64,000 bases of DNA from an uncultured Gammaproteobacteria bacterium (lineage in GTDB: Bacteria; Patescibacteriota; Microgenomatia; UBA8517), in NCBI GenBank assembly GCA_965231135.1, contig OZ246419.1:81028-145027 (forward strand). The letters are read 5' to 3'. Numbering within the stretch: the stretch's first letter is position 1; the number at the start of each line of letters is the position of its first letter. The notes beneath the pieces are model-generated. The model saw only the letters and a program-made list of their open reading frames with translations. It ran no database searches and was not told the origin of the DNA. Of this stretch, positions 5,419 through 30,514 are shown piece by piece. The translations under genes and the position numbers were made by a program.

Positions 5419-5580
5419 ATGTCACAAAAAACACTGGTTTATATTGGAGCATTTATTGGAGGGACAATTGGAAGTTTGATTCCAAATCTTTGGGGTGCAG
5501 GATTTTTATCTTTTTCATCTGTGATACTTGGAGGGATTGGAGGGTTGATTGGAATTTTTATTGTTTTAAAATTTCTTTAA
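5419..5580 (+). CDS. Small glycine-zipper membrane peptide (53 aa)
   Basis: Unannotated short ORF MSQKTLVYIGAFIGGTIGSLIPNLWGAGF...GGIGGLIGIFIVLKFL in an otherwise empty 167-nt gap; GxxxG repeats; no homology anchor. Confidence 0.3.
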   Translation: MSQKTLVYIGAFIGGTIGSLIPNLWGAGFLSFSSVILGGIGGLIGIFIVLKFL

Positions 5581-6260: not shown

Positions 6261-6268
6261 AATTTATT

Positions 6269-9953: not shown

Positions 9954-11222
9954 TTAATTAACAAAAGTCAAAGCTGTGCCTTTTTTGTCTGCGCGACCAG
10001 TTCTTCCAATTCTATGGATATAATCTTCATAACTTTCTGGTAATTCGTAATTTATGACGTGAGTGACATCTGGAATATCAAGACCACGAGAAGCAACATC
10101 TGTTGCAAGTAATATTTTTACATACCCATCTTTAAATTCGCTTAATGCTCTTTGCCTTTGATTTTGGCTTTTATTTCCATGAATGGAAGCAGCTTTAAAT
10201 CCTCTATCAATCAATTCTCTAGAGAGTTTCTCTACTCCAAACTTTGTGCGGCCAAAAATTAATACTTTTTCAAAACCAGGACTGATAAGTAATTCATGTA
10301 AAACTTCTATTTTTGATTTGCCGTTTGTTTTTACAATTTGCTGACTAACATTTGCTGTAGGGGCATTTGATTCAATTTTTATTGTCACCGGATTTTTAAG
10401 AAACTTTTTCATAACTCTCTCGACACCGTCCGTTATCGTTGCTGAGAAAAATAAAGACTGACGGGCGTATGGAAGTTTATTAATGATGTAATCTACATCC
10501 TGGATAAAGCCCATATCAAGCATGTGGTCGACTTCGTCAAGAACGATATTTCTATAATTATTAAAATTTATTTGGTGTTGATCTTCAAGATCTTTTAAGC
10601 GGCCAGGAGTACCAATAACAAATTGAGGATTTCTTCGTAAAATTTTAATCTGGCCGTGCATACTAACTCCTCCAATACAAAGAACACTTTGTAAATTTGT
10701 ATTGTAAGTAAATTCACGAAGTTCATCTCTGATTTGGACTGCAAGCTCACGAGTGGGAGCTAAAATTAAAACTTTTTGATCAGGATTTCTTAAAACTTTG
10801 TTAATTAAAGGAATAAGAAAAGCTGCAGTTTTACCTGAACCGGTTTTGGCAATACCGACTAAATCATGGCCTCTTAAAAGTTCTGGGATAGCAGCATCTT
10901 GAATAGGAGTTGGATTTATATAATTTTTATTAATAATATTTGTTTCCAGGCGCCTATCTAACTTAAAATCTGAAAATTTATTTTTGGCAATAAATTCTTT
11001 TACAACAACTTCTTCCTGGGGCATGCTATTAAGATTATTAATCATGTTTGTTGGGTCAAAATTTTTGGCACGAAAACGAGCGCGAGCGCCTCCGCGAGAC
11101 CTAAAATGATTATTATTCCTAAAGTTTCTATTTCCTCCACGGAAACTGTCTTTATGATTTCTGTTTTTGTTGTACATAATTTGCTGCCTAATATGAAAAT
11201 AAAATCTGAAGAAAAGATACAA
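9954..11222 (-). CDS. DEAD-box ATP-dependent RNA helicase (true start probably the internal Met near 11177)
   Basis: Q-motif region, Walker A AKTGSGKTAAF, PTRELA, DEVD (DEAD variant), SAT, HRIGRTGRA; RGG-rich N-terminal tail. Confidence 0.9.
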   Translation of the reverse strand: MYLFFRFYFHIRQQIMYNKNRNHKDSFRGGNRNFRNNNHFRSRGGARARFRAKNFDPTNMINNLNSMPQEEVVVKEFIAKNKFSDFKLDRRLETNIINKNYINPTPIQDAAIPELLRGHDLVGIAKTGSGKTAAFLIPLINKVLRNPDQKVLILAPTRELAVQIRDELREFTYNTNLQSVLCIGGVSMHGQIKILRRNPQFVIGTPGRLKDLEDQHQINFNNYRNIVLDEVDHMLDMGFIQDVDYIINKLPYARQSLFFSATITDGVERVMKKFLKNPVTIKIESNAPTANVSQQIVKTNGKSKIEVLHELLISPGFEKVLIFGRTKFGVEKLSRELIDRGFKAASIHGNKSQNQRQRALSEFKDGYVKILLATDVASRGLDIPDVTHVINYELPESYEDYIHRIGRTGRADKKGTALTFVN

Positions 11223-11357
11223 AAAATAAAAATTGGGGTACCTTATCTTACAAACTCAAATTAGCTTAATTATTAAGCAGTGAGAGTATTATAACAGAAA
11301 TTGGGAATATTTACAAACTATAGGAAGTTCCTTTCTTATTGGCATGGTTTTAAAATA

Positions 11358-12215
11358 TTACACAAACAACAGTCTTGATTCTTTTTTAGAATAAATTTTA
11401 TAACCGCACTCATTTCTAATATTTTGATCTTTATAACCTAATTTTTGAAGATTTTTCTTGCCAACAACAAACGCTTTATTAATTTCATCTTGAAGCAAGT
11501 TTCTTTCTGGAATATTTGTATGCATAGTATCGCTAGCGAACATTAAAATACCTCCTTCTTCCAAATTTTCTGCCAACGTAGGTAGGTCTGTATCCGGTAT
11601 ACTTCCGTGAGTTAAAGCCATTTTTTCGTGGATTAAAGCTAAATGATTATTCAAGGAAATTACGTTTCCATTTGGAAGCATAATTTTTATTCCTGATAAT
11701 TCATTTGCGTCACATTGTATAAAGTTAACTAAATGTCGATATTTATTAACGGCATCAATAGTTCCTTCATTAAATGATTCAGAATCAGGCAGACTTAATT
11801 TTGGGTTAAGTTGTATGTTACTTACCACAAAACAAACTTTTCCATCTTCGACTTCGTTTTTAAATTTATTAGCTAACCTCCCCCATGTTGTTCCCCACAT
11901 TCCTCCAAAATCTAAAAATATGGCAGGGTCGGCTACTTTATCATGAGTTCGTCTATCAATTATTTTTTTCATCGCTTCATATAATGTAATTTCTGTTCCT
12001 AATAATTCAGAAGTGTCTTTTCTCGGAGGAAAAACTAATTTTTGTTTATCTGAGAAAGGTGAAAAATAATCTCCAACACCAATAGACCAATCTTCAGGTC
12101 TTTCATCTTTTCTAATTTCAGCAATATGAATTCTATCTGCTTGCCGTCTTTCCAAAAATTTAGGAGCTGTTTCATATTTTTGTTGTAGAAATTCTCCTGA
12201 ATTGTTTGCAGTCAT
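11358..12215 (-). CDS. Hypothetical protein, possible Rossmann/SAM-methyltransferase-like fold
   Basis: FLDFGGMWG resembles methyltransferase motif I, but weak. Confidence 0.4.
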   Translation of the reverse strand: MTANNSGEFLQQKYETAPKFLERRQADRIHIAEIRKDERPEDWSIGVGDYFSPFSDKQKLVFPPRKDTSELLGTEITLYEAMKKIIDRRTHDKVADPAIFLDFGGMWGTTWGRLANKFKNEVEDGKVCFVVSNIQLNPKLSLPDSESFNEGTIDAVNKYRHLVNFIQCDANELSGIKIMLPNGNVISLNNHLALIHEKMALTHGSIPDTDLPTLAENLEEGGILMFASDTMHTNIPERNLLQDEINKAFVVGKKNLQKLGYKDQNIRNECGYKIYSKKESRLLFV

Positions 12216-12977: not shown

Positions 12978-14267
12978 TCAGAGATCAAACTCTGCTGGCA
13001 AGGTGTTAAGCATAAACTCTTCTGGTTTTTCTGCAAAAATTACTCTTTTACCTAATGATTGAGCGTATCCGATTTCTATTAAAGCTGATGCGCCGACATA
13101 ACCTTCTGGATCACAAATAATTAATGCATCACTTTTTTCAATAGAATCCAAATGATGTCTTTCCAATTCAAGAGGTGTCATCTTTTCTTCTCCTGAAAAT
13201 ACCACAAATTCTTCTCCAGGATTTTTGGGTTCTGTAAACCTCGGACTTAATACCTCTACATTATTTTCTACGAGTTCTTTCCTAATTTTTAGAATATAAT
13301 CTAAGTGTTTTCGAAAACTTCCACTTAAGGTAACATTTCTAAATTCTTGTCTTGCGGCACCGTTTATAAGATTTGAATTAGAAGGAATTATAGTTTCTAT
13401 TCCGTATTTTTCGCATATTGTTTGAGCTATTGCACTACAAGCTCTAGCTCCATGCATCCAGCTTGGATTGTCTGGCATAAGGTCTTCTAATTCTTTTAAT
13501 GTTATTTTTTCGAATACTTCTTCATTTTTTGAAGAGAAATCTTTAGTAGATATAAGAGACGGATGGTCTTCGTCGTTAAATAGATTATTTTTCTGCAAAT
13601 TATATTTTGCCAATTGCATGTAATTTAATTCTCCACCTGAATAGAGTCCAATTTTGACTTTATTGTTTAGTGTCGGTAATTTTTCAGAAACAAAAGCTTT
13701 TACTTTTTCAAGAGATGCAGCAGCTTTTTGTTCATTTATATTTTCAAATTCTGTTAATATTGTTCCTACTCCTAAGTCAACATTTTTAGTTTCTATTTCT
13801 TTATTATCTTTAATAACAACAAGTTCTGTTGAACCTCCACCGATATTTATAAGTAAAACTGGATCGTTGGTTTGATATTTACCAACTAATGCCACTTGGA
13901 GATAAAAACTTTCTAATTCTTGTGGAATTATATTGAAAAATAAACCAGTCGTGAGAAAGAACTCATCTACAAATTCCCTTTTTGTTTTTGGTTCAAGTTT
14001 TCTATATAAAGCAGTTGCAAATATTTTTATAGTAGTCTCTGGATATTTATTTTTTATCTCTTCGATAATTCCATATAATTCTTTTTTGTTATTATCAGAG
14101 ATACCCTTTATTGGATCGAAGTCCGTTTTAAATGGAATTGATTTTGTTAAAAATAAGTTAAGAGAGTCGCCTGCCTTTTCGTAAGCTTTAACTGTTGAAG
14201 AGCCTATATCAATGAATATGTATTTTTTCATTAAGTAGAATATAGTACTGCTTAAAACTATTGTCAA
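12978..14267 (-). CDS. Ppx/GppA-family phosphatase with extra C-terminal domain
   Basis: N-terminal IFIDIGSSTVKAYE actin-like ATPase motif of Ppx/GppA; C-terminal ~100 aa unassigned. Confidence 0.65.
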   Translation of the reverse strand: MTIVLSSTIFYLMKKYIFIDIGSSTVKAYEKAGDSLNLFLTKSIPFKTDFDPIKGISDNNKKELYGIIEEIKNKYPETTIKIFATALYRKLEPKTKREFVDEFFLTTGLFFNIIPQELESFYLQVALVGKYQTNDPVLLINIGGGSTELVVIKDNKEIETKNVDLGVGTILTEFENINEQKAAASLEKVKAFVSEKLPTLNNKVKIGLYSGGELNYMQLAKYNLQKNNLFNDEDHPSLISTKDFSSKNEEVFEKITLKELEDLMPDNPSWMHGARACSAIAQTICEKYGIETIIPSNSNLINGAARQEFRNVTLSGSFRKHLDYILKIRKELVENNVEVLSPRFTEPKNPGEEFVVFSGEEKMTPLELERHHLDSIEKSDALIICDPEGYVGASALIEIGYAQSLGKRVIFAEKPEEFMLNTLPAEFDL

Positions 14268-14314
14268 TAGGTAAATACTACTGTGAATAGATATTAGAAT
14301 GGTATAATATACAA

Positions 14315-14596
14315 ATGCACGGTAACTTATTGGGCAAGAAAATTAAGACAGCTAGAGTTTTGGTGGGATTATCGCAAAAAGAATTAGCAGAAAAACTTAA
14401 TTTATCTGAGAAGACAATTAGTGCATATGAGAAGGGCAGAGCAACGCCGCCTTCCCCTACTTTACAAAGAATCGCTAACGCGACTAATCAATACCTTCAA
14501 TTCTTTTCTGAAAATGAAGGAAAGGATAAGACTGATGAAATTTTAGAAAAACTTGATATCATCATTCAAGAACTTAAAAGGATTAACAATGGATGA
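14315..14596 (+). CDS. XRE-family helix-turn-helix transcriptional regulator
   Basis: LSQKELAEKLNLSEKTISAYEKGRATP canonical HTH_3. Confidence 0.8.
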   Translation: MHGNLLGKKIKTARVLVGLSQKELAEKLNLSEKTISAYEKGRATPPSPTLQRIANATNQYLQFFSENEGKDKTDEILEKLDIIIQELKRINNG

Positions 14597-15149
14597 AGAT
14601 TTAATAAAAACCATTCTTACAACAGGGATTTTAAAAAGAATTGACAGGACAGGTTGGGTAAAAAAGGGAGTTAAAAATCCAGAATCTGTTTCTGATCACT
14701 CTTACCGTGTCGCTGTTATTGCAATGCTTGTTGCACCACTACTCGATTTAGATCAGGCCAAGTTGATAAAAATGGCTTTACTACACGACTTAGGAGAAGC
14801 AGTTATTGGAGATGTTATTTGGGAAAAAGGTAAAAAGATAATTGGTTCTCAAAGCGAAAAACACAAAGACGAAGGCGAAGCTGTCAAACAAATTTTTGAT
14901 AAAACAAATAACAAAGAATATGTTGAACTTTGGGAAGAATTTGAATTGCAAACTTCTAAAGAGGCGCAGGTTCTAAAACAAATAGATAAATTAGAGATGG
15001 CAATTCAAGCTTATGAATATGAGAGAGAAGGAAATCCTTCTGAAAAATTAAATGAGTTTTGGGAGAATGCTGAGAAATATTTACAAGATAAAGAACTGGG
15101 GCCATTATTTAATTTATTGGTAAAAATGAGGTCTTCAAATGAAAGTTAA
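14590..15149 (+). CDS. HD-domain phosphohydrolase (YfbR/HDDC2-like 5'-deoxynucleotidase family)
   Basis: HSYRVAVIAM (H..R) and LLHDLGEAVIGD (HD) motifs; start ATG overlaps the XRE stop in ATGA (translational coupling), so the track start 14553 is likely too early. Confidence 0.75.
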
Positions 15150-15211
15150 TTTCTAAAATCGTCCTGTCTGGACTAGACTAAGCTCTCTCTGGTCGAAAAT
15201 GTAAGAACTTA

Positions 15212-16105
15212 TTACAAAGATATATCTTCAATCATTATTTCCACATCTTTGATCGCCTGATCATTTACAACCAACTTCCACTCATCTGTGTCAATAGAAG
15301 GACTTATTCCTATACAACCTCTGATTCTTTTTATAATATTGTTCACTTCTACACGTCTGGTAGTTGTGTTTTGCGGTAACTTAGATATTGCCCGATTTAA
15401 TCTTTGAGTTACTTGCCCTATCGTCGCTTGAGAGTCAGGTACAAGATCCTGTAAATTAGCGGCGCTTTTATCGCTCCATCTGTTTAAGTATCCACTAAGT
15501 TTTTCGGTAACATTTACGGGTTCGTTGTCTCTTTGTGGTTTAGTTTGAATATATTCTTCTACTTTTTGACCGGCTTTATGTAGAGACCCCAACAGAATGT
15601 CGTGAGATTTAATATCAGCTATTACATCTTCATGCTGTTGTTGCACAAAGTCATCTTCTTCGCCTGTTTTTGGCTCTTCTAGATAGAGAACAACTTCGGT
15701 AACTTGATAGACATCGTACAACAAACCTTCTAGTTGTTCATAATCAAATAGTTCGAGTTCTTCTTCGTCTGTCAATTTGTCTGTGAGCTTATCACCTAGT
15801 TCATAAGTCATCTTGTTAGATTGTATTGCGTCTGTAAGTTCTTGAGATAAGCTTTGGGGGGATGACACGTCAAGCGAGTTTAATCTATGATTGAGTGCCA
15901 TTGGAGAGCCTAATGCTTTCCCATCATGGATGCTAAATTCTATACCATACTCTTTTGACAATCTATCTAAGACATCTCTAATTACTTGTCGTTCATTTTT
16001 TGGCTCTTCAATCCCTTCCATATCTACATCATGTAACGCATCTTCAAAAGCTGACAGATTTGGTTCATTGTCTTGTGGAATTGGAAGGTTCTTATCTTCT
16101 GACAT
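15212..16105 (-). CDS. Acidic hypothetical protein
   Basis: Highly D/E-rich 297-aa ORF, no motif. Confidence 0.4.
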   Translation of the reverse strand: MSEDKNLPIPQDNEPNLSAFEDALHDVDMEGIEEPKNERQVIRDVLDRLSKEYGIEFSIHDGKALGSPMALNHRLNSLDVSSPQSLSQELTDAIQSNKMTYELGDKLTDKLTDEEELELFDYEQLEGLLYDVYQVTEVVLYLEEPKTGEEDDFVQQQHEDVIADIKSHDILLGSLHKAGQKVEEYIQTKPQRDNEPVNVTEKLSGYLNRWSDKSAANLQDLVPDSQATIGQVTQRLNRAISKLPQNTTTRRVEVNNIIKRIRGCIGISPSIDTDEWKLVVNDQAIKDVEIMIEDISL

Positions 16106-16166
16106 TACAATAATTATAGACTAAAAAAGATAAAAATGTTCAAGTCCTGTTGTAAGTTGATATATT

Positions 16167-16706
16167 TTAATTATTTTTAATTCGTTTGTTAATTAAGGGT
16201 GAAAAGTGATTTTTGTATTTTTCTTGAAGTTCTGATAATCGCCAGTCTTTGCCTGTAACTTTGTGTCTACAACTTTTTGAGCCACAATTACAATCCCATT
16301 TTGAGATATAATTTTCATCTGCTTCCCAAATTGCATAATCGGCAGTAAGTTCTTCATCTTTTGAAATATCACGCATAGCTACTAGGGCATAAGCACCTTG
16401 CATATATAAGTTAGGTTCACAAGAATGGTTTACGAAGTAGCCAGATCCTTCCCCTCTATCTTCAATACTAAAAAGATCATCGTCCCATTGCATAACCAAC
16501 TTACCACTCCTTTCGGCTTTATTAGCTTGTTTTGAGTTGACATATTCTCCACCCCAAACCACAACTAAATCTCCTTTTTTAATTGGTTTTACTGCATAAA
16601 GACCTTTCCCACCAATTTTAGATTGTCTTATTTCTGTGTCTGGGTTAATCCAATCTTCATCATTGAGGCTTTTTCTAATTTTCTTAATTATTTCTTCGGT
16701 ATTCAT
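16167..16706 (-). CDS. SET-domain protein methyltransferase with post-SET Cys cluster
   Basis: GKGLYA, NHSCEPN and ELTADY core SET motifs plus C-terminal CNCGSKSCRH post-SET zinc motif. Confidence 0.8.
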   Translation of the reverse strand: MNTEEIIKKIRKSLNDEDWINPDTEIRQSKIGGKGLYAVKPIKKGDLVVVWGGEYVNSKQANKAERSGKLVMQWDDDLFSIEDRGEGSGYFVNHSCEPNLYMQGAYALVAMRDISKDEELTADYAIWEADENYISKWDCNCGSKSCRHKVTGKDWRLSELQEKYKNHFSPLINKRIKNN

Positions 16707-16752
16707 ATCTGAAGTATACCAAAGTTCTAATTACTTGCCCCTTTTTTTGTAT

Positions 16753-17337
16753 TTAATATTTAAAAATTAGACCAATCTTGCCAAGAGATGTCTTTATTTT
16801 TAGATCCATTGGTTTAACAAATTTGTTAATTACAAAATATATCTCGATATTGAATGGATTCTTGTCAATTTTGCAGAATAGACATTTTTCTTTTGGATAC
16901 TTTTTTTCACTTTTCAAGTTTATTTTTCTGCCACCCAAATGGCGTTCTTCTGTATCTCCAAGAGGTAAGACATTATTCAAATAATACCTGGTGTGTTTAT
17001 CTGGGTCTAAATTAAGTTTTTCAGCGATTGTTTTTATCTCTTCATCCCATATGCTTGGAGATTTATCTAAGTCAAAACTCGTGAAGACTATCGGAGTTCT
17101 TCCAGTAAAAGTTTTTGGGTACTCTTCTTCTTCGTTGTGCATATTTAGCAAGAATTTTGTTTCTCTGTCTTCAATTATTTTTGCTTCATGGAAAGAATAG
17201 TGATGATGAGTACCGATGAACGATAGTCTTATATCTTTGCGTCCGTCAGTTAGGATTGATGTTTGTATTTTTATAAAAGGATATTCATGGTTTTGAAAAA
17301 TGGCTATTATGTATATCTCTGTTTGAAATTTGGACAT
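16753..17337 (-). CDS. Hypothetical protein (operon partner of OLD nuclease)
   Basis: 3-nt gap to upstream gene, 47-nt gap to SET gene; contains CLFC pair; no assignable domain. Confidence 0.45.
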   Translation of the reverse strand: MSKFQTEIYIIAIFQNHEYPFIKIQTSILTDGRKDIRLSFIGTHHHYSFHEAKIIEDRETKFLLNMHNEEEEYPKTFTGRTPIVFTSFDLDKSPSIWDEEIKTIAEKLNLDPDKHTRYYLNNVLPLGDTEERHLGGRKINLKSEKKYPKEKCLFCKIDKNPFNIEIYFVINKFVKPMDLKIKTSLGKIGLIFKY

Positions 17338-17339
17338 AT

Positions 17340-17918
17340 CTAAAAAGGTTTTCTTTTATGATAAAACCTGTGTTTTCCTTGTAATTGGTGTGTGTATTGT
17401 GTTGTGTAGTTATCTGTTAAGGAAACACCAGATATATTTTTAAGGGTACTTATTACTTGTGATATTAGGATTACTGATGCGGCGATAAGTATTATCCACC
17501 AAACAACAATCCATACTTTATATCTCAACCAAGTATTCTTCAGGAAATTTGTTTCTACTAGAATACGACCCGCCAAGACTCCGTTTCTATTTATTTTTAC
17601 CGACTGGTTAGAATTTGGGTCTTCATCACCAAAACCATACACTGGCAAGCTTTGCAGGATATGGGAACAACTATTTACTAACCGGTTCCTCTCGTCTTCG
17701 GAAATAAATTTTTCATCTCTACAATAATCCAAAGCAGATTTTACATGATTTGGACCTATATACGAGCCTAGATGTTGATGGTGTACACTAGCAGCCCAAA
17801 TTAGGACTGCTTTTACGCCATTCCACAAAGATTTCTCCTTTTTATGGCTTTCGTATTCCATCAACTGTTGTAGTATGTCCAACTTACGAAATGATGCAGG
17901 GGTAAAGGGAATATTCAT
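17340..17918 (-). CDS. Hypothetical protein with C-terminal transmembrane helix
   Basis: Soluble N-domain then WIVVWWIILIAASVILISQVI hydrophobic helix; 13 nt downstream of OLD gene. Confidence 0.45.
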   Translation of the reverse strand: MNIPFTPASFRKLDILQQLMEYESHKKEKSLWNGVKAVLIWAASVHHQHLGSYIGPNHVKSALDYCRDEKFISEDERNRLVNSCSHILQSLPVYGFGDEDPNSNQSVKINRNGVLAGRILVETNFLKNTWLRYKVWIVVWWIILIAASVILISQVISTLKNISGVSLTDNYTTQYTHQLQGKHRFYHKRKPF

Positions 17919-17930
17919 ACCTTATAAAAA

Positions 17931-19592
17931 TTATTCGTTAGCTATATCCACTGATTTGTTAATAATGTTTTTGATGGTAGTTGGAACTTCTTCTTTCGCG
18001 ATTGTTTCTGCTAAGTATTTAGCCGCAAAAGGCTTTGATTTTATTAAGAAATGCCTAACTTTTTCCTCCAAACTCTTATTTATAATTCTGGGGTGGTTTT
18101 TATAATTTGTGTAGCTGATGCCATAAGCTTGGTTCAGTAAAACATCTGTCTTTTGTAATCCAATGTCTTTTACAAGAACTGCTTCAAAATCTACATCCAT
18201 TGGAAACTTTGGCGCTTGTATCAAGTTTATTGTTTCATTTAACCCAGAACCGGGATCGTCGACGTCATAGACCACAACATGTGGAATTTTGAAACTTGTA
18301 AGATAGTCTGAATAGTTTTTTATATTTGGTTTACCGTTTACTTCAACCAAAACTACTCCCTTTTTAGATAAGTCTACGTTCAACTTATTAGCAAAGGTGG
18401 GAAGTGATAGATACTCTGTTGGTCCTTCCACTAAAATTACAGAGTTGGCAAAAAAAAGAAGGTTTCTTTGAGCATCAATATCGCGTTCAATTTTATTTTC
18501 CCCTGCGGGAGTTAACCAGTGAGATTCTTCGGGGAGCTGGACAACGTCGGTTTCGCCATTTTTTCTAAACACCCGTGCTATGTTTTTAGGTCTTGTTACG
18601 TTCACTAGAAATGGAGAATGAGAGGAAAAAACCACTTGGTTAGTTTTACTGCGATTTTGCATTGCTGTATTAAGTACGTATAATGCCAGCGGATGTAAAA
18701 ACAACTCTGGTTCTTCGAGACAAATTACTAGATTATTTTCCTGTTTAGCAACCAGTAATACCAGCGCTATTACTGCCAAACTTTTTATTCCGTCACCTTT
18801 TGTGTTTAGTTCACTTAAAAATCCATCATCGAGGTTTAGATGAACAGTTTTCATTATATCTCCTGGATTTACAGGCAATAATGATATATGAGTTGATGTG
18901 TAATCGTCTGTTAAAAATTCTAAGATTTGTTTTCTTATTTCTTCGTTAAGATTTACAAAGTCGCTACTTCCAGCAACTTTTATTGTTAGCTCTTCAAGGA
19001 TAGATTTTATATCTATATTCTTATTCGCATTTGATCTTAGTTTATTTAATAGTTTTCCCCAATCGTATTTTTGAGAATCAGAAAAGTATTTATCTGCATC
19101 TCTCTGTCCTGGTATAAGTATTAACTGCGGGAACAGTTCTCTTGCGTCGTTTTTAACAACTATCTCATTTCCGCCTACTGAATATCTTAATGGTTCAAGA
19201 TCGTCACCTAGATAATAAAATTTACCAGGTTCACCATAAGGCAACTCAAGGCAGACATTAAGCTTTGTTGAATAATTTCCTCTAACAGGCTCTGATCCCC
19301 TGACACGTAGATAGCCTCTTGCCTTTGATCTAAAAAATTTTAAGTCGTCTTCTGATAACTGATCGAGTGTTAATATAATCTTAACTGGTAATTTGGTATT
19401 GTTTCTGTGGTAATCGCCAATTTCTAGGTTTGTATAAGTAGGGTACGATTTGCCTAGTATTATAGATAAAGCTTTTATAATATTTGACTTACCAACGTTA
19501 TTGGGACCAACTAAGGCTAATAAATCACTGAAGCTGACTTCTGTTTTCTTTATACTTCTATAATTTTCTATAATTATTCTTTTAATCTTCAT
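17931..19592 (-). CDS. OLD-family ATP-dependent endonuclease (ABC ATPase + Toprim)
   Basis: N-terminal IKRIIIENYRSIK...LVGPNNVGKSNIIKAL (AAA_15/ABC Walker A), C-terminal Toprim ILVEGPTE ... VVYDVDD. Confidence 0.8.
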   Translation of the reverse strand: MKIKRIIIENYRSIKKTEVSFSDLLALVGPNNVGKSNIIKALSIILGKSYPTYTNLEIGDYHRNNTKLPVKIILTLDQLSEDDLKFFRSKARGYLRVRGSEPVRGNYSTKLNVCLELPYGEPGKFYYLGDDLEPLRYSVGGNEIVVKNDARELFPQLILIPGQRDADKYFSDSQKYDWGKLLNKLRSNANKNIDIKSILEELTIKVAGSSDFVNLNEEIRKQILEFLTDDYTSTHISLLPVNPGDIMKTVHLNLDDGFLSELNTKGDGIKSLAVIALVLLVAKQENNLVICLEEPELFLHPLALYVLNTAMQNRSKTNQVVFSSHSPFLVNVTRPKNIARVFRKNGETDVVQLPEESHWLTPAGENKIERDIDAQRNLLFFANSVILVEGPTEYLSLPTFANKLNVDLSKKGVVLVEVNGKPNIKNYSDYLTSFKIPHVVVYDVDDPGSGLNETINLIQAPKFPMDVDFEAVLVKDIGLQKTDVLLNQAYGISYTNYKNHPRIINKSLEEKVRHFLIKSKPFAAKYLAETIAKEEVPTTIKNIINKSVDIANE

Positions 19593-19701
19593 CTTAAAAC
19601 GAGCCTCGTCCTTATTAAAATTTTGTTATTAAAAAGACACACAGATTATACACCAGTAAAGAAAGACTTGTTCTTTTGTAACTCGCTTGGTCGATTTGAA
19701 G

Positions 19702-19911
19702 CTAAAATGGCATCAATTTTCCACCTGTAATTTTCAATGCTTTCGCTAGTTTATGTAAATTTATAAGTGATGGGTTTCTTATTCCCCGCTCGATTTGCCC
19801 TATATAGGTAAAATGTAAACCTGCTCGATCCCCCAACTCTTCTTGAGTTAAATCTCTTTCTTCTCGAAGTTTTCTTAAATGCTTTCCAAAAATTATCCTT
19901 ATGTCTGACAT
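19702..19911 (-). CDS. Cro/XRE-type HTH regulator
   Basis: LTQEELGDRAGLHFTYIGQIERGIRNPS HTH_3; immediately upstream of and co-oriented with the OLD operon. Confidence 0.75.
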   Translation of the reverse strand: MSDIRIIFGKHLRKLREERDLTQEELGDRAGLHFTYIGQIERGIRNPSLINLHKLAKALKITGGKLMPF

Positions 19912-19937
19912 AAAGTAAGCATGAAGAAAAGAAGACT

Positions 19938-20369
19938 ATGTATCCAGAGACGATAAGTCTTATTTATGCTATAATATATTTAATGAAAAACAGTGTTCCT
20001 ATTTACGAAAATAATTATATGGGTTTTTGGATAAAGGTTTATCCGACAAGAGTGGAATTTAAGAGTGGACCAGGCATGGAAACAGTCGCAATAAACCAAA
20101 TAGCAAGTGTGCAACTTGGAATGTTCATGTATATGCAGATAATTATTGAAACGACAGGTGGGCGAAAATACAAAATTCCTTGTGGAGACAAAGAAGGAGT
20201 AAGAAATGCAATTTATGCGGCTCAAGACGCTTTCAACGATAAGAAGGATAATGGCGGAAATACTATGAGTGTTGCTGATGAAATAACTAAGTTAAACGAA
20301 TTAAAAGAAAAAGGCATTATTACTCAAAAAGAATTTGATACTAAAAAAAAGAAATTACTCGATTCATAA
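19938..20369 (+). CDS. SHOCT-domain protein
   Basis: C-terminal ITKLNELKEKGIITQKEFDTKKKKLL short C-terminal oligomerisation (SHOCT) motif; true start may be the internal Met near 19983. Confidence 0.5.
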   Translation: MYPETISLIYAIIYLMKNSVPIYENNYMGFWIKVYPTRVEFKSGPGMETVAINQIASVQLGMFMYMQIIIETTGGRKYKIPCGDKEGVRNAIYAAQDAFNDKKDNGGNTMSVADEITKLNELKEKGIITQKEFDTKKKKLLDS

Positions 20370-20399
20370 CTTCTATCCTAGCTGTATAATCTTATATAT

Positions 20400-20811
20400 G
20401 GATCCGACTACAAAACAAGACGGTAAGGCGGAAAAAGATTTCACCGCTGATGGCAGGTTTGCTTTCGGTAACAAGGCTAACAAAACTGGACGTGGTGGTT
20501 TTGCAGATCACCCAGAGAATAGAAATCCCGGTGGAAGACCAAAGAATCTTGAGTCTTTTAAATACTGGCTTGATTATTTCAAAAAAATGTCAGTAGATGA
20601 ATTTTTGTGTTGGCAGAAAGAAATCTCAAACAAAGACAGAACAGTAGCTGCCGAATTAGCTTTTCTGATGATTGTTTCAGCCAGAAATAATCTGAAAAGT
20701 TTCAAAGAAATTGCTGATATAACAGAAGGGAAACCGAGATTTGCAACTGAAAATGCTGAAAATAAAATATCAAAGGTTAGGGTTGAAATTATAGAAAACA
20801 GAAAACAATAA
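20400..20811 (+). CDS. Hypothetical protein (mobile-element cargo)
   Basis: Start moved to MDPTTKQ to avoid overlap; basic N-terminus with GGRPK motif; no firm assignment. Confidence 0.4.
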
Positions 20812-20848
20812 AAAAATAGGTCTGTCTTATAATATAATTGCCGAATAT

Positions 20849-21613
20849 ATGAATATGAAGATTGAACCAATCAAGGTTACTGTTAAAAATTCCCACCTGC
20901 TAAGTGTGCTTCTCTCCTTTGTTGACAGAGACGACTTCTTAAATGATATTAGCCATATTAGAGAAGAAAAACTAGGAATGTCTAAATTATATAAAAGGAA
21001 ATTGGTTGAAGAACTATATAAATATTATACTGGTTTCAAAATTGGAGCCATTCGCAAAGACGATTTCAAGGGCGTACTCGATAGATTGTCAAAACGATAC
21101 CATATTTTGGACAATTCAGTTCCCCTAGATGAAACAGTCAAAAAAGCGATCGAAGAATCAGTGCAACTGATGCGAAAATATAACAAGAGTGTTTGTTTTA
21201 TGAAAGCCATTATGGTTGCGATGCTTTGTGGTGAAATTGGTAGTAAGGATTACTCAAGCAACACTTACTCCCTTGCACTCAATCCTTATACCTTACGTAG
21301 TGAATTATTTGAGGGATCTTACGATTACACGGCTATAATCATCAGTAGAGAATCAACAATAGAAGAGGTGGAAAATGTGTTTAAACAAATTTATAAGGAG
21401 CATTTTAAGCGTAAGAGGCCAATTAAATTATCAAAGAGCGAGCGATTTAAACCCGTTGTTGATGTTTATAGCAACATAGTCGAATTTCGAAAATGGTACT
21501 GGATGCACAAAGATGTGGGTTATCGCAAAATAGCAAAGGCAACTGCAATACCACTTGAAACTATTATAAGTGGGATTAGGACATATTCTTCTCTAATTAA
21601 AGCCTCTAAATAG
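20849..21613 (+). CDS. Hypothetical protein
   Basis: ORF only. Confidence 0.45.
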   Translation: MNMKIEPIKVTVKNSHLLSVLLSFVDRDDFLNDISHIREEKLGMSKLYKRKLVEELYKYYTGFKIGAIRKDDFKGVLDRLSKRYHILDNSVPLDETVKKAIEESVQLMRKYNKSVCFMKAIMVAMLCGEIGSKDYSSNTYSLALNPYTLRSELFEGSYDYTAIIISRESTIEEVENVFKQIYKEHFKRKRPIKLSKSERFKPVVDVYSNIVEFRKWYWMHKDVGYRKIAKATAIPLETIISGIRTYSSLIKASK

Positions 21614-21844
21614 TGTGGTTTTGAAGATTCTTTAAATCAACAACTCATATTCAAAAGCGATTCTTTTTATCATTTCCTTATATGAAAATGAACAGTTGGC
21701 TTACAGAAGAATTGAAAAGTGAGATTAAAAAGGTTTTTGAGCCTCGTTATAACAGAAAACTATCTAAACAAGAAATTTTACAAATTGCATTTGGTTTGAC
21801 TTCATATATTGAGAATGCTTCAAAGTTTAGATGGAGAGTAGAAA

Positions 21845-22078
21845 ATGCAAACTGAATACAAAACAAAGGATTTAGCAGAAGCGGCGGCGTTAATTGTAGA
21901 AGGTCAATCGTTATTATTTCTTAAAAGAGAGGGTCGAACTTGTTGGTTTGTATTTTCCAACTTCTCATCTTCTAAACAAATTTCAGATAAATTTTTCTTT
22001 GGTGACCTTTTGGTTAACGCAAGAAAATACAAGGAAGCAATCGATTTACTAAAAAGTAGAATTTTTGCAAGAGAATAA
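21845..22078 (+). CDS. Hypothetical protein
   Basis: ORF only. Confidence 0.35.
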   Translation: MQTEYKTKDLAEAAALIVEGQSLLFLKREGRTCWFVFSNFSSSKQISDKFFFGDLLVNARKYKEAIDLLKSRIFARE

Positions 22079-22080
22079 AT

Positions 22081-22437
22081 ATGTCATACCAAGATGAAGA
22101 TGTAAAAATAACAATTTTGTGGAAAGATAAAGGAAATTTGATTGCGAATGCAAATATATCTATCGAGACAGTTTCCTTTGGTTTTATAACAATAAAGGGG
22201 TTTCAAATTTGGAAAAGTGAAGTCCAAAATTCAAGATTGCAAGAATCCATAAATATCACACCTCCATCTAAACCAATGTATGGACATTATTTCAAAATAG
22301 TTTTTTTAGAAAACGAGAAGAGTTGGTTTGAATTAGAGAGAAGACTTTACGGAAAATTTTTGGAAAAGCGTATTAAAATACAGGAAAACGAGAAGATTGA
22401 CTTAGATGAGGTTGACGCTGATTTTAATAACCAGTAA
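22081..22437 (+). CDS. Hypothetical protein
   Basis: ORF only, 2-nt gap to upstream gene. Confidence 0.35.
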   Translation: MSYQDEDVKITILWKDKGNLIANANISIETVSFGFITIKGFQIWKSEVQNSRLQESINITPPSKPMYGHYFKIVFLENEKSWFELERRLYGKFLEKRIKIQENEKIDLDEVDADFNNQ

Positions 22438-22504
22438 TTATATAGTTATAGTTAATATATAGTAACTATACGATTACTTATAAGTGTGAGGTTAATTTGT
22501 TAAT

Positions 22505-24004
22505 ATGAACATGAATAATAAGCTAAAATATATAAGATATTCGCGAAAATCATCTGAAGCGAAAGAAAAACAAGCTCTTTCGATTTCAGATCAGAACTTG
22601 GAATGCGAAAATTACGCGCTACGAGAGCATTTGAATGTTGTATTAAAGCTAGAAGAGAGTCATTCTGCTTATAAGCCAAGTAATCGACCAGAGTTCGATA
22701 AAATGGTTAAATTGATTGAAGCTGGTGAGATTGATGCAATTTTAACTTGGCATGCAAATAGATTGTGTCGTAACCCGAAAGAGGGTGGAATGTTACTTCA
22801 ACTGCTACAAGATGGGGTTTTGAAAGAGATAAGAACAACTGCTGGCGATATTTATACTTCTGAAAGCGATCAGCTTATATTGCAGATTCACTTTGGAATC
22901 GCTAATCAATATTCAAGGGATATAAGCAGAAATGTTAGAAGAAGTCTGTTGCACAAAAGTGAACGCGGTGAATTTCCGAGACAAGCAATTTTGGGTTATG
23001 AAGGAGAAGGTGTGCGTGGAAAAAGAAATATGGTTCCCCACTCTTTTGAAGCGCCTTTAATAAAAGAGGCTTATGAATTGGTTGCTTATAAAGCGTGTTC
23101 TCTTGGATATTTATCGGAATACTTTCATAAAAAAGGGCTTACCACTAAACGAGGGAAGAAAATCAGCAAAAGTCATTGGTATGCGATATTAACAAATCCT
23201 GCTTATTACGGTTATTTTTATTACAGGGAAGAGATTTACAAAGGTATTTATACCCCGATCGTATCTAAAACGCTTTATGACGCAGTACAAACAGCCTTGA
23301 GCGGTCGGTCGAGACCGAAGACTAAGATTTGGAATGCTACTTATAACGGAATTTTTAAGTGTAAAAATTGTGGTTGTTTTATTACTACGACTTTCAAGAC
23401 AAAAAATTACAAAAGGACTCAAAGAACAGTCGATTATGTTTATATGCACTGTACACACAGAAAAGGAAGTTGTACTCAAAAACCTATTACCCTCAAGAGC
23501 TTTGAAAAACAGCTTTTAGATCGAATCTCAAAAATATCCATAGACGAAGAGGTGTGGTCTCTTGGAATTAAATTACTCAAAGCCAAACATAGTCACGAAA
23601 TCGAACAAAATACCAGCCAAAGATTGCAATATCAAACAAAATATAATGCGTACCAGGACAGACTTAACCGGTTAATAAGCATGAGATCAGAAGAAGAAAT
23701 TACAAAACAAGAATTTATAACACAAAAAGAGCTTTTGTTAGGAGAACAAGCACGAGTCAAAAGCTTACTAAATGACACTGAAAGTTCAGAACATACTTGG
23801 TTAGAACTTGCTGAAGATTTCTTAAATACTGCTTTTTACGCACGAGACTTGATAACAAGTGGAAAACCAGACGAAAAACGGAATTTGATTATGACTGTGG
23901 GTGAGAACTTCTTTTTGGAAGATGAAAGGCTTGATTTTAGCTTCAAAAAACCTTATGACATACTACTCATCCCTGACTGCCGTACTAACATGCTCCCCCG
24001 GTAG
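22505..24004 (+). CDS. Large serine recombinase (site-specific integrase)
   Basis: N-terminal resolvase domain YIRYSRKSSE...LSISDQ (catalytic Ser in R.S context), ~500 aa with Cys-rich recombinase/zinc-ribbon region (CKNCGC...CTHRKGSC); 3' end overlaps tRNA-Asn. Confidence 0.85.
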   Translation: MNMNNKLKYIRYSRKSSEAKEKQALSISDQNLECENYALREHLNVVLKLEESHSAYKPSNRPEFDKMVKLIEAGEIDAILTWHANRLCRNPKEGGMLLQLLQDGVLKEIRTTAGDIYTSESDQLILQIHFGIANQYSRDISRNVRRSLLHKSERGEFPRQAILGYEGEGVRGKRNMVPHSFEAPLIKEAYELVAYKACSLGYLSEYFHKKGLTTKRGKKISKSHWYAILTNPAYYGYFYYREEIYKGIYTPIVSKTLYDAVQTALSGRSRPKTKIWNATYNGIFKCKNCGCFITTTFKTKNYKRTQRTVDYVYMHCTHRKGSCTQKPITLKSFEKQLLDRISKISIDEEVWSLGIKLLKAKHSHEIEQNTSQRLQYQTKYNAYQDRLNRLISMRSEEEITKQEFITQKELLLGEQARVKSLLNDTESSEHTWLELAEDFLNTAFYARDLITSGKPDEKRNLIMTVGENFFLEDERLDFSFKKPYDILLIPDCRTNMLPR

Positions 24005-24064
24005 GATTCGAACCTACGACCTTGTTCTTAACAGGAACCCGCTCTACCGCTGAGCTACAGGGGA
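23993..24064 (-). tRNA. tRNA-Asn (GUU)
   Basis: 72-nt cloverleaf folded by hand: acceptor TCCCCTG/CGGGGGA, D-arm GCTC AGCGGTA GAGC, anticodon loop CTGTTAA, T-loop TTCGAAT; no encoded CCA. Confidence 0.85.
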
Positions 24065-27197: not shown

Positions 27198-27285
27198 TGG
27201 CGGAGGCGGTGAGATTCGAACTCACGAGACTCTTACGAGTCCAAGTTTTCCAAACTTGTGCCATAGGCCACTAGGCGACGCCTCC
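27198..27285 (-). tRNA. tRNA-Ser (GGA), class II with long variable arm, CCA encoded
   Basis: Reverse complement GGAGGCGTCGCCTAGTGG...anticodon loop TTGGAAA...long variable arm...GTGAGTTCGAATCTCACCGCCTCCGCCA. Confidence 0.85.
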
Positions 27286-27289
27286 AGAA

Positions 27290-27730
27290 TTATTTTTTCT
27301 TAGCCTTTTTCTTTTTGTCTAATTCTTTAAGGAGGTCGCGAGCCGACTTTAGCATTGCCAAATCTTTTTTATTTTTAATTTTTTTTGCAGCCTTTGTGTA
27401 GTCAAGCCATTCGAAATCTAAAAATGCCAAGACTTCTTTTGCTTCTTTGCAAATCATTAAATAGTAGAGAGTTCTTTGAGGAATAGTATTACCACCAACA
27501 AGAGCTGCTCCATTAACCCGGCCGACTTCTTCTTGGACTTTAACATTCATTGCGGCTTGCTCACCCATCATACGAATAACTGCACGAACTGAAGATTCAC
27601 CACGCCTGGCATTTGTTTTTGGAATTTCCCAATCTCCGTCTTCTTTTTGTTTCACTACAAACCAAACTGGCTTATCTTTAACTTTTTTGTAGACAACTGC
27701 ACCACCAACAAGAATTAATTTTTGTTTCAT
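27290..27730 (-). CDS. Hypothetical protein, weak Nudix-like features
   Basis: GESSVRAVIRMMGEQAA loosely resembles a Nudix box; lysine-rich C-terminal tail. Confidence 0.4.
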   Translation of the reverse strand: MKQKLILVGGAVVYKKVKDKPVWFVVKQKEDGDWEIPKTNARRGESSVRAVIRMMGEQAAMNVKVQEEVGRVNGAALVGGNTIPQRTLYYLMICKEAKEVLAFLDFEWLDYTKAAKKIKNKKDLAMLKSARDLLKELDKKKKAKKK

Positions 27731-27784
27731 TGTGCTTGAATTATATCACGAATTCACCCATTCGGCTTCGCTCAGGGCTGTAGG

Positions 27785-27869
27785 CGGCGGGTGCAGGATT
27801 TGAACCTGCGTAAGGATTGCTCCTTTCGGTTTTCGAAACCGATGCAATTGGCCGCTATGCGAACCCGCC
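27785..27869 (-). tRNA. tRNA-Ser (CGA), class II
   Basis: Acceptor GGCGGGT/ACCCGCC, anticodon stem TCGGT/ACCGA with loop TTCGAAA, long variable arm, T-loop TTCAAAT. Confidence 0.8.
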
Positions 27870-27882
27870 AATAAATAACTTG

Positions 27883-27954
27883 TGTACTCGCTGAGAATCG
27901 AACTCAGATCAAAGGATCCGCAATCCCTTATTCTGTCCATTGAACTACGAGTAC
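27883..27954 (-). tRNA. tRNA-Arg (GCG), isotype tentative
   Basis: 72-nt cloverleaf: acceptor GTACTCG/CGAGTAC, anticodon stem AGGGA/TCCTT, loop TTGCGGA (G37 consistent with a CGN reader), T-loop TTCGATT. Confidence 0.7.
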
Positions 27955-28034
27955 TCTTCGACTACGCTCAGAGCTATAGCTTACTCGAATTATATCAAAT
28001 TGAAGCTTTTTTATCGTGAAGCGACAAGCTTTGC

Positions 28035-28547
28035 TTATTTTAAACCGGGCATTTTATTACTAAACCAGTTGGTTGCACGATCTAAACCTGAAGCTGGGAC
28101 TTCTTCATGAACAAGATATTCGCTTAAAGCTTTTTGAATTTGATCTTTTAATTCCGGTTTTGTTACTAATTCCAAACGCCCTGGCAAAACTCTTGTTTCG
28201 ATTATTAATAGTTCGTTATCAAGACGCTTTGCAAACCAAAATCTATTCATAATATTCCAATCAGTTAGGCGCCCCGCAATTTTGATTCCTTTATTTGTAA
28301 TTTTATATTCAATATTTTCAGGCTCAATTGTTGACATAACATACACTAAAAAAACAATAGAAATAATTAAAATTACTGGAAGAAAACCGTCAATTAAAAA
28401 TGCGACTAAACCTGTAACTGCAGCGATTGCAATAATATTTATATAAAATTCACGATTTCGCCTTTTGAAGGGACGAGAAGGTGCAGACCATACAATTAAA
28501 TCTTTTTCCGGAACGTTTTGTTGTACTGTTGTTACTACTTCGGGCAT
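28035..28547 (-). CDS. Membrane protein, unknown function
   Basis: Two central TM helices; no motif. Confidence 0.45.
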   Translation of the reverse strand: MPEVVTTVQQNVPEKDLIVWSAPSRPFKRRNREFYINIIAIAAVTGLVAFLIDGFLPVILIISIVFLVYVMSTIEPENIEYKITNKGIKIAGRLTDWNIMNRFWFAKRLDNELLIIETRVLPGRLELVTKPELKDQIQKALSEYLVHEEVPASGLDRATNWFSNKMPGLK

Positions 28548-28592
28548 CAGGAATATTATACGTCAATTTGATATAATGCGGTAGGTTTGAAA

Positions 28593-28679
28593 GGAGGCGT
28601 CGCCTAGTGGCCTATGGCAGAAGTTTGCTAAACTTCGACCCCTAATCGGGTCTCGTGAGTTCGAATCTCACCGCCTCCG
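28593..28679 (+). tRNA. tRNA-Ser (GCU), class II
   Basis: GGAGGCGTCGCCTAGTGGCCTATGGCA...anticodon loop TTGCTAA...variable arm...GTGAGTTCGAATCTCACCGCCTCCG; acceptor, D- and T-arm near-identical to the inverted Ser(GGA) gene. Confidence 0.85.
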
Positions 28680-28733
28680 CCCAAGGTGTTCGGTCGCATA
28701 AGCGAAGCTTGTGGCGACCCACCTCGCAAGCTC

Positions 28734-28821
28734 GGTGAGGTCGCATAGTGGCCTAGTGCGTTGGTCTTGAAAACCAATATAGGGAATTTCCCTATCGAGA
28801 GTTCGAATCTCTCCCTCACCG
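28734..28821 (+). tRNA. tRNA-Ser (UGA), class II
   Basis: Acceptor GGTGAGG/CCTCACC, anticodon stem TTGGT/ACCAA with loop CTTGAAA, long variable arm TATAGGGAATTTCCCTATC, T-loop TTCGAAT. Confidence 0.8.
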
Positions 28822-28828
28822 CTTAGTT

Positions 28829-29407: not shown

Positions 29408-29408
29408 T

Positions 29409-30480: not shown

Positions 30481-30505
30481 CTTTTAGGTTCAAAAAACAT
30501 ATAAT
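30477..30505 (+). promoter_or_regulatory. Sigma-70-type promoter for ssrA
   Basis: TTGACT, 17-nt spacer, TATAAT, ending 9 nt before the tmRNA 5' GGGG. Confidence 0.6.
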
Positions 30506-30514
30506 ATTTGCATT

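Follow-up and report, generated by a model that had tools for sequence, protein, structure and literature searches.

Large serine recombinases (LSRs) recombine attP with attB through a 2-bp staggered cut, need little sequence identity between the two sites, and depend on a directionality factor for the reversal. To our knowledge, the characterised enzymes (phiC31, Bxb1, TP901-1, A118, TnpX/TndX and CcrAB) use protein-coding or intergenic sites. In this study, we analysed an LSR gene that runs into the 3' end of a tRNA-Asn gene in a 64-kb stretch of DNA from a metagenome-assembled genome of the Patescibacteriota (64,000 nucleotides, positions 81,028 to 145,027 of contig OZ246419.1, assembly GCA_965231135.1; hereafter the window). 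The region from about 15.2 or 19.6 kb to 24.0 kb of the window is probably (we estimate a probability of about 0.7) an integrated element, neither conjugative nor viral, that was inserted at the 3' end of tRNA-Asn by its own LSR. Its conserved core is smaller than the single ~10-kb element (14315-24064) first proposed in an original prediction, which had been read from the letters of the DNA.

Genomic islands that integrate at tRNA genes (Islander/TIGER type) are defined by tyrosine integrases (PMC4383910). The nearest precedent for the present case is the tycheposons of Prochlorococcus, 27 of 937 of which carry an LSR (bioRxiv 10.1101/2020.12.28.424599). Tycheposons and phage-inducible chromosomal island (PICI)-like elements are small and tRNA-adjacent, and combine a site-specific integrase and a regulator with optional replication and terS genes and with cargo (bioRxiv 10.1101/2020.12.28.424599). 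We found no description in the literature of serine-integrase elements at tRNA genes of candidate phyla radiation (CPR) bacteria, and the LSR family considered here is distinctive and apparently undescribed.

The recombinase and its junction with tRNA-Asn

The enzyme fits the definition of an LSR, with a zinc-ribbon score below threshold, and recombination activity is predicted from its sequence. A Resolvase domain (PF00239, 1.7e-17) forms the catalytic part and is followed by a Recombinase domain (PF07508, 2.9e-14, residues 182-268). The zinc ribbon PF13408 (Zn_ribbon_recom), which is present in most homologs, scores 22 bits here against a cutoff of 25.3. In an alignment of 40 sequences, residues Y12, R14, S16, R61, R86 and R89 are invariant, as are the cysteines C286, C289, C316 and C323. 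In PHROGs it matches an integrase (2.1e-62), and the alignment profile matches the LSR catalytic-domain structures 3g13 (1.5e-11), 3guv and 3bvp, the last from TP901-1.

That a serine recombinase reads into the 3' end of tRNA-Asn on the opposite strand had been recognised in the original prediction and was borne out. The LSR stop codon (TAG, 24002-24004) lies within the convergent tRNA gene, and the open reading frame (ORF) has 13 nt in common with the tRNA 3' end. At its own 3' end the LSR gene reads ...CGTACTAACATGCTCC; the conserved C-terminus, here ...PDCRTN, is followed directly by the antisense acceptor stem, and the final codons ATG CTC CCC CGG TAG, which are the last four codons and the stop, are the reverse complement of that stem.

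This geometry is shared family-wide. Metagenomic loci were collected by an alignment-based scan with the LSR, which yielded 80 loci, and several more were added by exact look-up (labels L###); a scan of metagenome contigs with the single LSR protein gave no matches. The LSR protein is identical to an NCBI entry on an 810-kb contig and to one encoded on a 101-kb Logan contig. Hundreds of LSR homologs were found at 50-67% identity, and the named ones all belong to the CPR (Microgenomates, WWE3, Curtissbacteria, Pacebacteria), with the exception of one entry labelled "archaeon". In all 33 of the 33 homologous loci with a called tRNA, the tRNA 3' end lies one codon past the conserved C-terminal motif ...KKPYDxLLxPEYRTN of the LSR. 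The junction in the window is thus not a coincidence, and the contact between recombinase and tRNA is a genuine integration signature. The tRNA species at the 33 junctions are Asn, Gln (CTG and TTG), Trp and Asp; LSRs of only 28-36% identity are placed likewise at Gln, Met, Lys and Asn tRNAs. In a tally over several searches, a tRNA was present at the junction in about 44 of 52 loci, counting tRNAs that contain an intron or are truncated by the contig. Most of the apparent exceptions were resolved as tRNAs cut by the contig end or split by a group I intron, the latter identified by Rfam in L096 and L099, and in L089, which has no Rfam intron match, by similarity to L099 only.

The reading frames of these LSRs continue for 4-20 codons antisense through the tRNA and produce recurrent tails such as MLPR and ...DSN..., the latter derived from the T-loop. 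Against these short tails stand long forms of 525-565 aa at non-tRNA junctions, a size reached by about one in ten family members in the homolog list. In L004, L117 and L114 the ORF extends past RTN into non-tRNA sequence, and L114 and L115 share a conserved coding stretch downstream (...WNQI...KLGFTY.NG...). Because attachment site and integrase ORF overlap at the 3' end of the latter, the tail at the C-terminus varies with the junction, and the C-terminus of the integrase may differ between junction states. The family was not seen among viruses or plasmids: single-protein and alignment scans of the viral contigs of IMG/VR gave no LSR relative, and the nearest LSRs in 50,697 phage and 72,556 plasmid records are below 28% identity.

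The tRNA-Asn gene at the junction is host DNA rather than element DNA, because the linkage of rpoD with tRNA-Asn also exists without an LSR. A scan with RpoD found this LSR-free arrangement in five distant Patescibacteria loci (L009, L016, L019, L024 and L033; 57-63% RpoD identity). In L014, rpoD is followed by an intron-containing tRNA and then by a different LSR (26-28% identity), which is split into two ORFs and converges on the tRNA. Set beside the LSR-free loci, this suggests that the rpoD-tRNA-Asn site has been used repeatedly and is empty in other, distant relatives.

The LSR belongs to a clade found across the CPR, in which the attachment region coincides with the last codons of the integrase ORF and the 3' terminus of the tRNA; the tRNA itself stays intact. 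In the proposed mechanism, integration places the tRNA acceptor stem, in antisense, directly after the LSR C-terminus. The crossover would fall within the 3' terminal ~10-30 nt of the tRNA, of which the element would supply the terminal part; where repeats of the tRNA end exist at the far end of related elements, the shared core starts at the tRNA 3' end. The conserved T-arm may serve as the B' half-site; if so, it would account for the ease with which the enzymes change from one tRNA species to another. XRE2, a small repressor-like protein, and/or the other small proteins encoded next to the LSR would act on a cluster of TATAGTTAC repeats that lies before the LSR gene. The core element comprises an XRE repressor, a ~250-aa orphan, 57-aa, DUF5659 and 118-aa proteins, and the LSR. 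Cargo would lie between the XRE gene and the distal junction; here it is most likely an operon of OLD and SET genes, which would give an island of ~8.8 kb.

A wider picture is offered tentatively. The enzymes may form an undescribed, Patescibacteria-wide LSR clade specialised on tRNA 3' ends (Asn, Gln, Trp and Asp, with Met and Lys in distant members), with the attachment site in the end of the ORF and a tail swapped between an antisense-tRNA form and a longer native extension. Its elements would be 4-11 kb in size and carry defence cargo, some with DnaD or TerS genes and a subset with an unannotated, pseudoknotted leader of ~95 nt in front of the integrase gene. Patescibacteria have tiny genomes, and their gene exchange and acquisition of defence genes are little understood; a compact family of tRNA-targeting serine integrases, whose members were found at six tRNA species and across many CPR lineages, would provide such exchange with a concrete vehicle. 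It would also yield new tRNA-specific serine integrases with short, predictable attachment sites, which are of practical interest in genome engineering.

Several other features were observed in the related loci. Group I introns (RF00028, 60-107 bits) lie in the tRNA beside the LSR or rpoD at L096:6523-6718, L099:11535-11746 and L014:11220-11440, where they hide the tRNA from ARAGORN. They match the introns at position 35/36 of Patescibacteria tRNA-Asn/Asp that have already been published (PMC13011429). L096 and L097, which are 99.3% identical over 6.5 kb and differ in the 5' half of the tRNA, were considered as one element in two hosts. This was rejected: the left part common to both contains a host signal-peptidase gene, what differs is an allele of a group I intron, and the pair gives no evidence of transposition. 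Two different LSR genes on the same strand, 6-10 kb apart, occur in L175:10001-21581 (a WWE3 bacterium), and the same layout is found in L003 (833-2419 and 10001-11497) and L092 (3837-5498 and ~10000-11509), which suggests tandem arrays of serine-integrase elements. LOOT RNA (RF03000) was detected at L004:15182-15295 (80 bits) and L117:15748-15862 (71 bits), at ~3.6-4.3 kb past the LSR; these are the two loci in which no tRNA follows the LSR. In both, the RNA lies inside a neighbouring element with DUF3892 and a repressor; L117 and L175 also have a Prim-Pol/D5 primase and a second LSR.

Conserved module, cargo and neighbouring genes

All proteins of the window were compared with the fetched loci by tblastn, which gave the homolog counts in Table 1. 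Only the genes from XRE2 to the LSR recur across the LSR loci, and the conserved core is for this reason placed at ~19.6-24.0 kb. The gene content listed in the original prediction (XRE genes, OLD-SET genes, SHOCT protein, XRE-HD pair and orphans) was recovered by Pfam and PADLOC, and the core flanks proved to be as described, with Ppx/GppA and Mpg as the left and rpoD-dnaG as the right neighbours.

Table 1. Coordinates of the LSR, its tRNA target, the accompanying genes and the left neighbours in the window
Feature	Position	Strand	Evidence
tRNA-Asn(GUU/gtt), intact; host target gene, right junction (attR side)	23992-24064	-	ARAGORN
Large serine recombinase (LSR, serine integrase), 499 aa	22505-24004	+	Pfam, PHROG, alignment and PDB profile matches
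Repeat cluster: five TATAGTTAC/GTAACTATA-like copies, imperfect palindrome, 33 nt before LSR start	about 22434-22472	.	Motif scan
118-aa protein, unknown family, directly upstream of LSR	22081-22437	+	40-58% identity in 12 loci
77-aa DUF5659 protein, core accessory gene	21845-22078	+	Homologs in 42 loci
57-aa two-helix protein, most widely conserved accessory gene	21682-21855	+	Homologs in 54 loci
254-aa orphan	20849-21613	+	tblastn matches in 5 loci: L137 (44%), L114, L150, L145, L098
137-aa orphan (158 aa from upstream TTG)	20398-20811	+	No counterpart in related loci
SHOCT-domain protein	19938-20369	+	Pfam SHOCT 2e-08; PHROG unknown-function families
XRE2, 69-aa XRE/C-protein-like repressor	19702-19911	-	HTH_3 1.3e-17; PADLOC control protein 7e-23
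OLD-SET run, probable cargo (OLD, 192 aa, 194 aa, SET, 297 aa)	15212-19592	-	Pfam, PADLOC
OLD-type nuclease, AAA_15+TOPRIM	17931-19592	-	PADLOC Old 4e-54
SET-domain protein	16167-16706	-	Pfam
HD_3 protein, YfbR-like, 5'-deoxynucleotidase-like	14553-15149	+	Pfam
XRE1	14315-14596	+	Pfam
Ppx/GppA-like protein	12978-14267	-	Pfam

Among the accessory proteins, the 77-aa family can be placed: 21 of 25 members match PF18903 (DUF5659), the best at 3.3e-10. The 57-aa protein has no Pfam family, and neither the 118-aa protein nor the 137/158-aa orphan has a Pfam or PHROG match. A homolog search of a protein database with the 254-aa orphan returned only the orphan itself; by eye, a protein of similar size and with a similar N-terminus stands at its position in L092, L108, L129 and L116. 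The SHOCT protein has no tblastn match in the related loci. XRE2 homologs occur in 23 loci, 1.7-5 kb upstream of the LSR start and in either orientation, with a further copy downstream in L114. The small proteins of the module are candidate regulators, and the 57-aa, DUF5659 or 118-aa protein may be the directionality factor of the LSR.

The palindrome that had been pointed out before the recombinase start is real; it lies at 22441-22471, a few bases to the left of the ~22445-22478 first given. The five TATAGTTAC-like copies at 22434-22470, before the LSR, form the sole cluster of their kind within the window, and the motif is also repeated upstream of the LSR in L092, L094, L122, L125 and L131. 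It overlaps weak promoter-like hexamers, and most likely represents a putative operator over the LSR promoter, which is the most economical reading. In 13 related loci, among them L003:9895-10003, L004:9895-10003 and L128:7355-7465, the LSR start codon is preceded, at a distance of 5-15 nt, by a conserved structured element of ~95 nt. Of the 21 pairs in its RNAalifold prediction, 15 show compensatory double changes, and by eye three helices can be drawn, one of which crosses the others as a pseudoknot. It has no Rfam 15 match at the gathering score and no meaningful one at E<=10. The structured element is absent from the window, which carries the TATAGTTAC cluster at this position instead.

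To the left of the core, XRE2 is the first gene of a minus-strand run that continues into OLD: XRE2, OLD, the 192-aa and 194-aa genes, SET and the 297-aa gene are co-directional, with gaps of 2-109 nt, and the run ends at 15212. The OLD protein matches both Old (4e-54) and GajA (4.2e-51) in PADLOC; its adjacent genes have no helicase and no PADLOC match, and the locus does not correspond to a Gabija system, in which GajA is paired with the UvrD-like helicase GajB. Weak homologs of the cargo are found upstream of other LSRs, namely SET in L004/L090 (36%), OLD in L150 (24%) and the 192-aa protein in L116 (21%), where it lies inside a repeat-delimited element. The 297-aa, 194-aa and HD proteins have no tblastn counterparts in the related LSR loci. 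The SET protein of L004 is encoded within 974-4869, where it has different partners and lies upstream of XRE in a related LSR element; no PADLOC model matches any of these partners. By analogy with the relatives L108 and L091, whose cargo sits between XRE and the distal repeat, the OLD-SET operon is plausibly cargo too, and we regard it as probable cargo of the element.

The XRE1-HD pair (14315-15149) probably consists of host genes outside the element. An XRE1-type helix-turn-helix (HTH) and a nucleotide-metabolism enzyme recur next to Ppx in relatives, which gives the pair its host-like character: XRE1 shares 60% identity with the HTH of an HTH-NUDIX protein that stands divergent from Ppx in L171, and 36% with the equivalent gene of L172/L173. 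In every relative the Ppx neighbour is a nucleotide-metabolism enzyme (NUDIX, NTPase_I-T, NDK or ADK), a nucleotide hydrolase in most and a nucleotide kinase in two. The left limit of 14315 in the original prediction is thus probably wrong.

The Ppx/GppA-like protein, which has a weak nucleoside 2-deoxyribosyltransferase-like C-terminal region (E=0.0069), is kept at 63-79% identity across many CPR genomes, and it stands next to HD, NUDIX, NTPase_I-T, NDK or ADK genes in the window, L167, L169, L171, L172/L173 and L174. Its closest relatives (70-79% identity) keep Ppx and Mpg together and share nothing on the other side of Ppx. That side carries other islands in relatives, including a tyrosine integrase with XRE-AAA_15 at tRNA-Val, an insertion sequence and restriction-modification genes. 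The first of these is in L167 (488-4592), the closest Ppx relative, where a tRNA-Val island has a tyrosine integrase and an XRE gene, followed by a 625-aa AAA_15 ATPase. Its order of XRE and then OLD-like gene matches that of the window (XRE2 39% identity, OLD N-terminus 37%).

Elsewhere in the window, deviant tetranucleotide composition is limited to 1-7000 (z up to 2.4, GC 0.29), 37000-42000 (z up to 2.8, GC 0.41) and 52000-55000 (z 1.65, GC 0.38). A cluster of five tRNAs (four Ser and one Arg) is located at 27198-30928, and a tmRNA (30515-30928) encodes an unusually long tag of 28 residues (AKSNDQASEVNPLMALLGVGSNQSALAFA).

The distal end and alternative explanations

Junction repeats were searched in the DNA upstream of each LSR, up to ~12 kb or as far as the locus extends. 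Of 28 loci, 7 had on the same strand an exact 9-15-nt repeat with its anchor at offset -1/0 from the tRNA 3' end; the opposite-strand control gave such repeats in 1 of 28, and other offsets about one match each. Their distance from the tRNA is 4.1-11.2 kb, and in several the match continues, with mismatches, into the T-arm. The repeats measure 15 nt in L163, 10 nt in L129, 10 nt followed by a degenerate T-loop in L108, and 16 of 20 nt in L116. In L129 the repeat abuts the XRE genes and delimits an element of 4.1 kb. In L116 it is located in an intergenic gap beside host-like genes and delimits an element of 8.6 kb, which holds the 192-aa-like protein, a TerS-like protein (phrog_1206, 2.7e-7) and a DnaD-like initiator (2.3e-5). 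A DnaD-like initiator also occurs in L108 (5.6e-7) and a TerS-like protein in L004, which suggests phage-satellite behaviour in part of the family. L108 and L091 resemble the window in having their XRE gene on the minus strand, and the minus-strand genes downstream of it reach to 35-80 nt from the repeat; the 9-nt repeat of L091 starts at offset -5 and is outside the seven. These data give moderate statistical support to an element layout in the order distal junction, cargo, XRE gene, small genes, LSR and tRNA.

A number of results weigh against an integrated element in the window. The direct-repeat signal in the relatives is itself modest, being restricted to 7 of 28 loci and to short repeats. 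In the window, no direct repeat of the tRNA 3' end was found anywhere in the 64 kb, including near 14.3 and 19.6 kb, where the original prediction had led us to look for one. This search used exact 10-14-mers, a repeat search, 24-nt windows with at least 17 matches in both orientations, anchored 6-8-mers, 11-mers with at most 3 mismatches, a T-arm scan, and local alignments set against control distributions. The same tests revealed no orphan T-arm or displaced tRNA fragment in the window, and no intergenic region that aligns to the right junction above the control background. The compositional shift expected across 14.3-24 kb did not appear either: GC is 0.30-0.36, like the flanks, and the tetranucleotide distance over 13-24 kb has z values of -0.4 to +0.5. 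We saw neither an excised nor a circular form, and did not find an empty site in a close relative. Ppx relatives at 70-79% identity have lost synteny, and the other contigs with identical Ppx or RpoD all carry the same island. Finally, no replication initiator, TerS or directionality factor is recognisable in the window copy by Pfam or PHROG.

Several candidate junctions were examined and set aside. Matches to the tRNA end at 11878 (CTCCCCC) and 12946 (ATGCTCCGCC) lie inside the coding sequences of a 285-aa ORF and Mpg, and also to the left of the conserved Ppx-Mpg pair; they are attributed to chance. The tRNA-like pieces in the spacer at 19593-19701 (CGAGCCT-CGTCCTTATT, TTGTTATTAAAAAGA and CTTGTTCTT) are not significant (p=0.048 for a single segment, p~0.19-0.23 for chained segments). 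At 15176-15197 there is a gapped resemblance (ACTAA-GCTCTCTCTGGT-CGAA) that requires three gaps, and we make no claim for it as an attachment site. An exact 14-nt inverted match between 19695-19708 (TTTGAAGCTAAAAT) and 23934-23947 (ATTTTAGCTTCAAA) links the stop region of XRE2 with the 3' coding region of the LSR. It was rejected as a pair of P/P' arms, being ~45 nt away from the junction and missing at the left ends of other loci, and is probably due to chance. The left breakpoint between L175 and L178 was likewise not accepted as an attachment site, as identity fades gradually inside a homologous gene. If k=31 is assumed for Logan assemblies, the end of contig L182 at 24020 implies branching at 23991; this would follow equally from any organism with an identical tRNA sequence.

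We infer the left boundary from the arrangement of the genes. An extent of 15.2-24.0 kb is favoured, with reserve; an element confined to 19.6-24.0 kb seems rather unlikely, and one that reaches 14.3 kb is improbable. The annotation is corrected to a mobile core at 19.6-24.0 kb, with the OLD-SET operon as probable cargo, the XRE-HD pair as probable host DNA and the distal junction undefined.

The restricted extent corresponds to an explanation by two acquisitions, in which a minimal LSR element of ~4.4 kb (19.6-24.0 kb) was joined in a hot spot by a separate defence cassette, OLD-SET (15.2-19.6 kb), that the LSR did not mobilise. Conservation across the LSR loci is indeed confined to the genes from XRE2 to the LSR, the repeat-delimited element of L129 has its left end at the XRE gene, an XRE-AAA_15 pair also occurs in the tyrosine-integrase island of L167 at tRNA-Val, and the Ppx side is variable in all relatives. 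Yet the genes from XRE2 to the 297-aa gene form one co-directional run with short gaps, laid out as in the repeat-delimited L108 and L091, the spacer at 19593-19701 has no att-like sequence above chance (p~0.05-0.2), and weak homologs of the 192-aa, OLD and SET proteins lie upstream of other LSRs. We consider two acquisitions unlikely.

It is similarly doubtful that the locus is a grounded remnant, that is, an old integration whose distal junction decayed or was deleted and whose LSR is now fixed and possibly domesticated. Such a history would agree with the absence of an attL repeat and of any compositional difference from the host, and with the occurrence of the identical island in three samples from a single study, where no alternative allele was found. 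Relics do exist in the family, such as the solo LSR of L126, which has only a tRNA 3' fragment, and the split LSR of L014. The LSR ORF of the window is nevertheless full length, with all the invariant catalytic and zinc-binding residues, and the whole accessory module is intact. Moreover, 21 of 28 relatives also have no repeat of at least 9 nt, and because serine integrases need only a very short identical core, the missing repeat is weak evidence for a remnant.

A single ~10-kb element at 14315-24064 that includes the XRE1-HD pair is improbable: the block is bracketed by conserved Ppx-Mpg and rpoD-dnaG genes and its size is within the 4-11 kb of the relatives, but an XRE1-type HTH gene stands divergent from Ppx in LSR-free relatives (60% in L171, 36% in L172/L173), the HD hydrolase fits the nucleotide-metabolism neighbourhood of Ppx, and there is nothing att-like at 14268-14314.

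Comparison with known systems

The absence of capsid, terminase and conjugation genes noted in the original prediction holds up in Pfam and PHROG searches. Among the ORFs at 14.3-24.0 kb, no Pfam or PHROG match to a capsid, terminase, portal, tail or lysis protein was found, as would mark a prophage, and no Pfam match to a relaxase, coupling protein or type IV secretion system, as would mark an integrative and conjugative element (ICE) or an integrative and mobilisable element (IME).

As in the genomic islands of the Islander/TIGER type, the integrase stands beside an intact tRNA, with the island on the 3' side and with cargo and defence genes, and short repeats of the tRNA end mark the distal end in some relatives of the LSR (7 of 28 related loci). 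Unlike those islands, the recombinase is a serine rather than a tyrosine enzyme, the window has no displaced tRNA fragment, repeat or compositional deviation, and the repeats of the relatives are only 9-15 nt long. With tycheposons and PICI-like satellites, the window copy has an integrase and a repressor in common. Related CPR elements come closer, with DnaD-like genes in L116 and L108 and TerS-like genes in L116 and L004. The window copy differs in having no recognisable replication initiator, primase or TerS and in belonging to a different phylum, and its accessory module (57-aa protein and DUF5659) is undescribed for tycheposons.

In the Mx8-type arrangement, attP is situated inside the integrase gene and integration alters the 3' end of that gene; Mx8 Int is a tyrosine recombinase. 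The attachment site that overlaps the 3' end of the integrase ORF in the window appears to resemble the Mx8 arrangement, with a serine recombinase in place of the tyrosine enzyme. Like phiC31, Bxb1, TP901-1, A118, TnpX/TndX and CcrAB, the LSR has, in this order, a resolvase domain, a recombinase domain, a probable zinc ribbon (sub-threshold score) and a putative long helical region. Unlike them, it targets the 3' end of a tRNA, into which its ORF runs antisense, and unlike theirs, its host element is of 4-11 kb and has no virion or transfer genes.

In sum, the locus is a tRNA-targeting serine-integrase element of CPR bacteria rather than a prophage, an ICE, an IME or a recognisable satellite, and it shares with known LSR elements the location of the LSR gene at the very edge of the element, beside the attachment site.

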